Source: Escherichia coli (GTDB taxonomy: Bacteria > Pseudomonadota > Gammaproteobacteria > Enterobacterales > Enterobacteriaceae). From it: DNA of 27,235 bases. A program made the position numbers and the translations under genes. The notes beneath the pieces are model-generated. The model made no database searches. It saw nothing but the letters and a program-made list of their open reading frames with translations, and was not told where the DNA came from. This document shows, piece after piece, positions 3,060 through 3,728 of the stretch (within the stretch, counting starts at the first letter, position 1; each line of letters begins with the position of its first letter). The stretch lies in the NCBI RefSeq assembly GCF_003334385.1, contig NZ_QOWN01000058.1; one strand, given 5' to 3'.

Positions 3060-3728
3060 CTATTTTTTCCCTGAAGCGGAAAACATTACTACAGTACCTT
3101 GAACCTTGGTTTTAACATTCTCGAAATGCTCTGAGAGTATATGTGTTAAGCCTTCTTCGGAATCTTTTGTGTTTGAAAAGATGCCTTTCTGATTGTAAAT
3201 GCGCATCAGTTTTTGACCGAAGCTATTGTGCACAACTCCATCGCCAAGAATTGTGGCTCCGTATAGAGTTCCATCGTCAGTTAAGGCCTGCGCCGCATTG
3301 CGTATTACACAGCTTTTTGTAGATATATTTCCAGGCAGGCAGTGAAGAAGGTAAAACATGGAAATGGAATCAAATTGGCCATGTAACGCCGCGGGATAAG
3401 GTTCAAAAACATCATGGCTAATTTTATGTTTAATTTTTGATTCCCCAGCCCTTGTAGATGCCGCGTTCAGGCTAGCTTCGTTCAAATCCATTAAAGATAT
3501 CAGACTACTCTCAGGTACGTGAGTAAGGTAAAACCCAGTTCCAACACCAATATCCAGATGGTTGTTACCTAAATGTTCCAGAAAGTGTGGAAGAAGGTGT
3601 TCCTTTGTAGGACATCCCCATGCAAGCCGATTTGATACTCCCAAAACCCACCAGTCATAAAGCTTTAGGGTAAGTGGTGTGTAAATTTTAGCCCCATCAT
3701 CTGTGTTTTTTTTCATCAATTTCACCAT
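3060..3728 (-). CDS. Class I SAM-dependent methyltransferase, 222 aa (possibly an intact counterpart of the K-12 DLP12 gene ybcY)
   Basis: ORF contains a glycine-rich motif-I-like element (..LDIGVGTGFY..). No clear Shine-Dalgarno at the first ATG; an alternative ATG lies 4 codons in (3714-3716). Position next to tfa and ompT matches where ybcY sits in K-12. Confidence 0.6.
   Translation of the reverse strand: MVKLMKKNTDDGAKIYTPLTLKLYDWWVLGVSNRLAWGCPTKEHLLPHFLEHLGNNHLDIGVGTGFYLTHVPESSLISLMDLNEASLNAASTRAGESKIKHKISHDVFEPYPAALHGQFDSISMFYLLHCLPGNISTKSCVIRNAAQALTDDGTLYGATILGDGVVHNSFGQKLMRIYNQKGIFSNTKDSEEGLTHILSEHFENVKTKVQGTVVMFSASGKK

Follow-up and report, generated by a model that had tools for sequence, protein, structure and literature searches.

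Gene, start codon and transcription signals

According to our analysis, the window, by which we mean the whole stretch of 27,235 nucleotides of Escherichia coli DNA under study, carries on its minus strand an intact methyltransferase gene, which RefSeq annotates as class I S-adenosylmethionine (SAM)-dependent and which corresponds to the K-12 pseudogene ybcY (Table 1). A preliminary description, made from the letters of the window alone, had reported its open reading frame (ORF) of 222 codons with a class I motif I; both are present, on a strand which that description had left unstated. The encoded protein is identical to WP_000239881.1, and E. coli SCU-104 matches window positions 2600 to 4000 at 100% identity; its annotation gives the coding sequence (CDS) under this accession as "class I SAM-dependent methyltransferase." The protein is matched over its full length by PHROG 2132, a family of phage proteins without an assigned function (E value of 8e-157), and among 1.84 billion cluster representatives searched, 197 clusters at 50% identity match it at E < 1e-30. 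The ORF is a real gene and not a chance reading frame. Compared with its homologs in Citrobacter and Enterobacter, it shows a ratio of nonsynonymous to synonymous substitution rates (dN/dS) of 0.09 and is under purifying selection. As an annotated and catalogued gene with a named K-12 counterpart, it is ordinary and already known; what is added here is the definition of the K-12 lesion, a probable shift of the start codon to position 3716, the effective exclusion of a DNA-methylase role, and a link to the pyrone O-methyltransferase CtvB, which gives a concrete substrate panel.

The real product probably has 218 amino acids and starts at the second ATG (M5, position 3716), since the homologs and the PHROG profile both begin there and a Shine-Dalgarno-like sequence lies just upstream. 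Positions 1 to 218 of the 218 positions of the PHROG 2132 profile align with residues 5 to 222, the majority of homologs are 218 amino acids long and begin at the position of M5, and inspection of the sequence upstream of the annotated ATG (position 3728) revealed no Shine-Dalgarno sequence. A further argument for the M5 start is that the −10 element of one of the two promoter candidates directly abuts the annotated ATG.

That candidate has the same sequence in the window and in K-12, where the ybcY promoter has been predicted under a peak of RpoD-holoenzyme binding obtained by systematic evolution of ligands by exponential enrichment and where the spacer has been flagged as an H-NS site (PMC3946193). 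Since the consensus scan found no more promoter-like sites in the region than expected from shuffled sequence, we regard the promoter evidence as suggestive only. At the other end of the gene, the terminator-like hairpin has a predicted folding energy of −18.1 kcal/mol (z score of −4.2), as low as that of none of 200 shuffled sequences, and the match returned by the terminator scan falls inside it. The GC content of the gene is about 39 to 42%, versus 52 to 57% in the nearby core genes ybcH and nfrA, and the Rfam search gave no match within or beside the gene.

Table 1. Coordinates of the methyltransferase gene, its sequence elements and the neighboring stress cassette in the window
Feature	Position	Strand	Basis or remark
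ORF of 222 codons plus stop	3060..3728	minus	RefSeq class I SAM-dependent methyltransferase WP_000239881.1; intact K-12 ybcY ortholog by alignment
Probable true CDS, 218 amino acids, from the second ATG (M5)	3063..3716	minus	PHROG profile, homolog lengths, Shine-Dalgarno
Shine-Dalgarno-like GGTGA	3722..3726	minus	5 nucleotides upstream of ATG 3716; read from sequence
Motif I SAM-binding loop HLDIGVGTG, residues 57-65	3534..3560	minus	Direct read
Family signature LLHCLPG, residues 127-133, after beta-4, with invariant H129	3330..3350	minus	Family alignment; conserved in CtvB
Sigma-70-like promoter TTAACA-16-CATAAT (candidate)	3757..3784	minus	Consensus scan, 10/12 matches
Second promoter candidate TTGATT-17-TATAAC	3729..3757	minus	Identical to predicted K-12 ybcY promoter
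Intrinsic-terminator-like hairpin with U-rich tail	3009..3054	minus	Begins 6 nucleotides past the stop codon
Manganese-catalase family protein	342-1232	minus	Stress cassette
Two ferritin-like YciE/YciF-type proteins	1251-1757 and 1794-2300	minus	Stress cassette
YciG-like general stress protein, 60 amino acids	2373-2555	minus	Stress cassette

Comparison with the K-12 pseudogene ybcY

K-12 ybcY (b0562, a pseudogene of the prophage DLP12, NC_000913 582152-582806) aligns with the window gene at about 99% nucleotide identity, by which the window gene is its intact ortholog. Alignment with K-12, which the preliminary description had suggested as a way to see the lesions, places the damage in the start region, where TTGATGAAAAAAAAC has become TTAATAAAAAAAC (TTG ATG AAA AAA AAC to TTA ATA AAA AAA C). 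This change removes the ATG of M5, and with 2 nucleotides lost on balance, the frame read from M1 reaches a stop at codon 10, while the remaining frame of K-12 ybcY is open and differs from the window protein only by K14R and F125S.

The preliminary description had also placed the gene where K-12 has ybcY; the orthology stands, whereas the position is not the same and the two neighborhoods are only roughly alike. The gene order is tfaD-ybcY-tfaX-appY-ompT in K-12, while in the window a tfa gene is followed by the manganese catalase gene, two ferritin-like genes, the yciG-like gene, the methyltransferase gene, and ompT-envY-ybcH-nfrA. Thus, tfaX and appY, which separate ybcY from ompT in K-12, are both missing from the window, and the cassette of catalase and ferritin-like genes is missing from K-12.

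The only phenotypic mention of ybcY that we found is that its deletion left Hha toxicity unaffected. Our literature search retrieved no functional study of ybcY, and WP_000239881 was not found in any paper searched. As for annotation, in RefSeq records of the K-12 type a "nucleocapsid protein" also stands beneath the ybcY pseudogene, and an overlapping "hypothetical protein" is given in those of many other genomes; we take both features as probable artifacts of ORF calling, placed on the opposite strand or in a different frame.

Distribution and phage context

When we inspected 5,426 complete E. coli genomes for a CDS with at least 95% identity and at least 80% coverage, the methyltransferase gene was present in 3,799 of them (about 70%), in one to four copies per genome and nearly always on the chromosome. 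The intact 222-amino-acid protein forms a cluster of 6,589 member sequences, and the identical protein occurs in O157:H7. At 99 to 100% identity, the gene is further carried by 15 records of lambdoid phages (ev243, 2G7b, the PhiR series, Kati, Turner, and others), among them phages for which E. coli C, ECOR13, or MG1655 served as the isolation host. In phage ev243, it lies between the tail-fiber genes on one side and an alpha/beta hydrolase gene, ompT, and int on the other. The earlier assignment of the gene to prophage cargo is borne out by these phage records and by the map of ev243.

The gene is oriented opposite to the tail genes, and the flanking cargo differs among the window, O157:H7, K-12, and ev243. 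Its GC content, its opposite strand, its promoter candidates, and its terminator hairpin together give it the layout of a phage moron, and we think that a self-contained cargo gene of this kind, in the arm between tail fiber and att of a DLP12-type lambdoid prophage, is the best explanation of the locus.

A different reading would make the gene a functionless remnant, an ORF still open by chance in a decaying prophage. Its pseudogene state in K-12, the existence of truncated variants (protein clusters of 130 to 194 amino acids), and possible silencing by H-NS agree with such decay. We nevertheless deem it improbable in view of the size of the intact cluster, the presence of the gene at high identity in most complete E. 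coli genomes, the low dN/dS against other genera, and its carriage by phages isolated on three different E. coli hosts.

Several observations concern the surroundings of the gene rather than the gene itself. In ev243 (L009 2831-5455), ompT and a gene for a 494-amino-acid alpha/beta hydrolase lie between methyltransferase and integrase, so in such phages ompT itself is phage cargo. In the window, a four-gene stress cassette (342-2555, minus strand; Table 1) separates the tail-fiber assembly gene from the methyltransferase gene; its proteins also occur in O157:H7 493/89, and the cassette is present neither in K-12 DLP12 nor in ev243. The spacer that separates the methyltransferase gene from the yciG-like gene (2556-3059, about 500 bp, 33 to 35% GC) has no Rfam match, and the only ORF of at least 40 amino acids in it (2780-2971) is unsupported. 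It is at this spacer that the flanks of the methyltransferase gene diverge in other genomes, with 93% identity versus 99% in the CDS. Finally, the first 182 positions of the window match Rfam IS009 (RF02111) on the plus strand with 200.7 bits (gathering score of 117); this match is cut at its 5′ side by the edge of the window and overlaps the 3′ end of the tail-fiber assembly ORF (49-222).

Fold and methyltransferase class

That the protein is a SAM-dependent methyltransferase, as had been proposed from its motif I, found support both in a search with hidden Markov models of known families and in the predicted fold. Five Pfam families match, with E values from 6e-9 to 3e-4: Methyltransf_12 (6e-9), _23, _25, _11, and _31. 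In an alignment of 82 family sequences, residues H57, G61, G63, and G65 of the SAM-binding loop are near-invariant, and D81 (in LMDLN), which follows a predicted strand at residues 76 to 81, is invariant in 82 of 82 sequences; on the model, D81 would be the acidic residue with which beta-2 ends in class I enzymes and which binds the ribose of SAM. The AlphaFold2 model built from the same alignment (mean predicted local distance difference test score of 95.2, predicted template modeling [TM] score of 0.91) consists of an N-terminal three-helix lid, an alternating beta/alpha Rossmann core, and a terminal beta-hairpin, and has the seven-stranded fold of class I. In a Foldseek search against the PDB, the top 50 matches were all small-molecule or lipid methyltransferases, including PmtA, JHAMT, SgvM, CysG, PfPMT, NodS, and UbiG. 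Single-sequence and profile searches of PDB sequences matched the core only (residues 54 to 156), with E values no better than 8e-7. Taken together, we consider class I membership of this protein close to certain.

The class does not by itself name the substrate, and a role in epigenetics or anti-restriction as an orphan DNA methyltransferase had to be considered, as such enzymes are often carried by phages and as PADLOC returned a marginal match to mad2 of the methylation-associated defense system (E value of 0.003, 14 bits). That match was treated as generic Rossmann similarity and set aside. A regular-expression scan detected no DPPY-type or PCQ motif, the lone "ENV" at residue 203 stands outside a C5 context, no DNA-methylase Pfam family was matched even at E ≤ 10, and the protein has no target-recognition domain and no room for one. 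The structural neighbors as a whole are small-molecule, lipid, or RNA methyltransferases, and no DNA methylase is among them. A restriction or specificity gene adjoining the methyltransferase was not found in the neighborhood of the gene in the window, in SCU-104, in O157:H7, or in ev243, in agreement with what the preliminary description had stated for the window. The label "orphan" that it had attached to the gene is of little use here, as its restriction-modification connotation falls with the missing motifs, domain, and families. We deem a DNA-methylase role very unlikely and in effect excluded, so methylome experiments would be a poor first choice.

Relatives in fungi and bacteria

A Foldseek search against AFDB50 revealed relatives in fungi and other bacteria at 36 to 46% identity and a TM score of about 0.9 (0.88 to 0.91 for named entries), which bear names such as "Methyltransferase verB" (TM score of 0.88), "N-methyltransferase vrtF," "putative O-methyltransferase," and "VatX." The fungal query for named relatives returned mostly unnamed proteins, and CtvB was recovered only through a cluster look-up, in which P0395 proved to be Swiss-Prot Q0C9L6, "Methyltransferase ctvB" of Aspergillus terreus. 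The BLASTP alignment of the window protein with CtvB covers 214 of 222 residues at 41% identity (E value of 9e-52). The two proteins have in common all five invariant columns of the family alignment (Y24, D81, H129, G157, and D189) and 22 of the 23 near-invariant ones, and the window protein contains the family-specific residues YD, W..C, HLDxGxGxG, LLHCLPG, K138, T159, N186, and D189. Bacterial and fungal members are 30 to 65% identical in full-length pairwise comparison. By these sequence measures, the protein is a member of a compact bacterial and fungal family, about 220 amino acids in length, that includes CtvB.

The characterized fungal members share one chemistry. CtvB, AurB, AstB, and DovB (= VerB) O-methylate the acidic 4-hydroxyl (enol) on an alpha-pyrone ring, in the pathways to citreoviridin, aurovertin, asteltoxin, and deoxyverrucosidin/verrucosidin, respectively, and the activity of DovB was demonstrated by heterologous expression (PMC12312803; PMC7077241). 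For VatX, our literature search found no described function.

Fungal and bacterial members are interleaved. A protein of the lichen fungus Endocarpon pusillum (P0147) is 51 to 52% identical to one of Pseudomonas viridiflava (P0295) and 47% identical to fungal CtvB, a pattern that hints at transfer between kingdoms or at unusually slow evolution. On a metagenome contig (SRR33619829_17215; L010 2315-4474), one protein of 719 amino acids joins a family member to a cytochrome P450; its gene overlaps an upstream polyketide synthase (PKS) gene with the domains AT-ACP-TE and is followed by a second P450 gene and one for a phosphopantetheinyl transferase of the Sfp type. Another bacterial member adjoins a 4HBT thioesterase, and PKS or thioesterase neighbors are limited to some of the distant bacterial members. 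The N-terminal domain of a further fused member (P0243, residues 1 to 300) has no Pfam match, and a U32-like domain considered for it was dropped as unsupported by Pfam.

Such a family composition bears on whether the enzyme could modify RNA (tRNA or rRNA) or protein of host or phage. A macromolecular target of this kind seems distinctly improbable to us: the similarities concern the generic Rossmann core, to which no RNA-binding or other extra domain is added, no such family reaches significance in NCBIfam, and the protein's own family holds polyketide-tailoring enzymes and the P450 fusion. The substrate is likely to be a small molecule rather than a nucleic acid or a protein.

Gene context of homologs

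The context of homologs was surveyed by clustering the ORFs within 5 kb in 80 loci of GTDB species, mostly Proteobacteria. Synteny was seen within genera only, with a chemoreceptor gene in the Pseudomonas graminis group and with crotonase and CorA genes in the Pseudomonas syringae group; generic paralogs of short-chain dehydrogenases/reductases and of LysR also occur among the neighbors, and no PKS was found in these loci. The homologs of Salmonella and Enterobacter (56 to 65% identity) are single chromosomal genes outside prophages, in mutually unrelated neighborhoods. In the P. syringae/viridiflava group (L035, L038, L039, L041, L047, and L089; ~7590-7997), a conserved ORF of about 108 amino acids ends 4 to 11 nucleotides before the start of the methyltransferase gene, with which it may be cotranscribed; within the 80 loci, it was not found outside this group.

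Proposed function and mechanism

We somewhat favor the reading that the gene encodes a cytoplasmic small-molecule methyltransferase, likely acting on an enol or phenol oxygen and carried as phage cargo, while for O-methylation of an enol or phenol, taken as a claim of its own, we see the chances as evenly balanced. The preliminary description had held that the substrate cannot be read from sequence. This is still true of the exact substrate, but it was too pessimistic about the chemistry, which the full-length relative CtvB narrows.

The mechanism that we infer, small-molecule O-methylation and residue roles included, is as follows. The soluble cytoplasmic enzyme would bind SAM at the HLDxGxGxG loop and D81 and would accommodate a small enolic or phenolic acceptor beneath the N-terminal three-helix lid (YD...W.C motif). 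H129 or D189 would then serve as the base that deprotonates the hydroxyl, followed by SN2 transfer of the methyl group. Class I methyltransferases place catalytic residues directly after beta-4, where H129 lies within the family signature LLHCLPG, and this residue is our candidate for the catalytic base.

A small-molecule methyltransferase of another chemistry, which would methylate nitrogen, sulfur, or carbon, is also conceivable, for example, a methylase of thiols or metalloids, or a detoxifier similar to Rv0560c, the mycobacterial N-methyltransferase of heterocyclic toxins. It appears somewhat unlikely, given that the structural matches are just 10 to 20% identical and reflect a generic core, and that the sole characterized full-length relatives found, at 36 to 41% identity, are O-methyltransferases.

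Several points weigh against small-molecule O-methylation as we propose it. The roles given to H129 and D189 are guesses, because no family member has a solved structure, and within class I families 41% identity leaves room for another specificity and even for another acceptor atom (O, N, S, or C). NCBIfam holds no specific model for the protein, which gave only sub-threshold matches to CpaM (17 bits, cutoff of 180) and RquA (17 bits, cutoff of 175). No PKS or other pathway partner lies near the gene in E. coli, and since no neighbor is conserved beyond the genus level in the 80 loci surveyed, context gives no substrate. Furthermore, K-12 lives without a working copy of ybcY, and since its promoter region is flagged as H-NS-bound in K-12, many conditions may leave the gene unexpressed.

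E. coli is not known to make pyrones, and the substrate of the small-molecule O-methyltransferase that we favor would therefore more likely be exogenous, or a different enol or phenol. In a bolder scenario, which we consider quite unlikely but worth stating, temperate lambdoid phages would spread a small-molecule O-methyltransferase, from a family that spans kingdoms and has members in fungal polyketide pathways, and in the lysogen this enzyme would methylate and so alter or inactivate an exogenous enolic or phenolic compound. Candidate targets would be 4-hydroxy-pyrones, 4-hydroxycoumarins, alkyl-quinolone signals, competitor toxins, and catecholic or plant phenolics of the gut. If this were true, the gene would be a lysogenic-conversion gene for chemical defense or signal editing, alongside ompT and the catalase cassette. 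Should the enzyme act on a metabolite from the environment or from a competitor, E. coli would have in it a cheap, widespread case of small-molecule chemistry carried by phages.

Comparison with known systems

Solved class I small-molecule methyltransferases (MM_2633, 3dtn; DhpI, 3ou2; PmtA, 8ys9; BelI, 9fce; and RebM, 3bus) are only 13 to 18% identical to the window protein, and there is no solved counterpart to its N-terminal lid and its C-terminal region, in which the invariant residues specific to the family lie. The chemistry that we propose resembles the class I SAM-dependent O-methylation of 4-hydroxy-pyrones or cyclic enols by the bacterial enzymes AurI, EncK, and JerF, which we take as a functional analogy only (PMC6273487). 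Among characterized enzymes, the closest likeness is that to the fungal CtvB, AurB, AstB, and VerB, which are similar in size to the window protein (218 to 229 amino acids) and have the same predicted fold. Their setting differs, however: the fungal enzymes belong to gene clusters of highly reducing PKSs and act on a defined polyene-pyrone (PMC12312803; PMC7077241), whereas in E. coli the gene travels as phage cargo, flanked in the window by a yciG-like gene and ompT.
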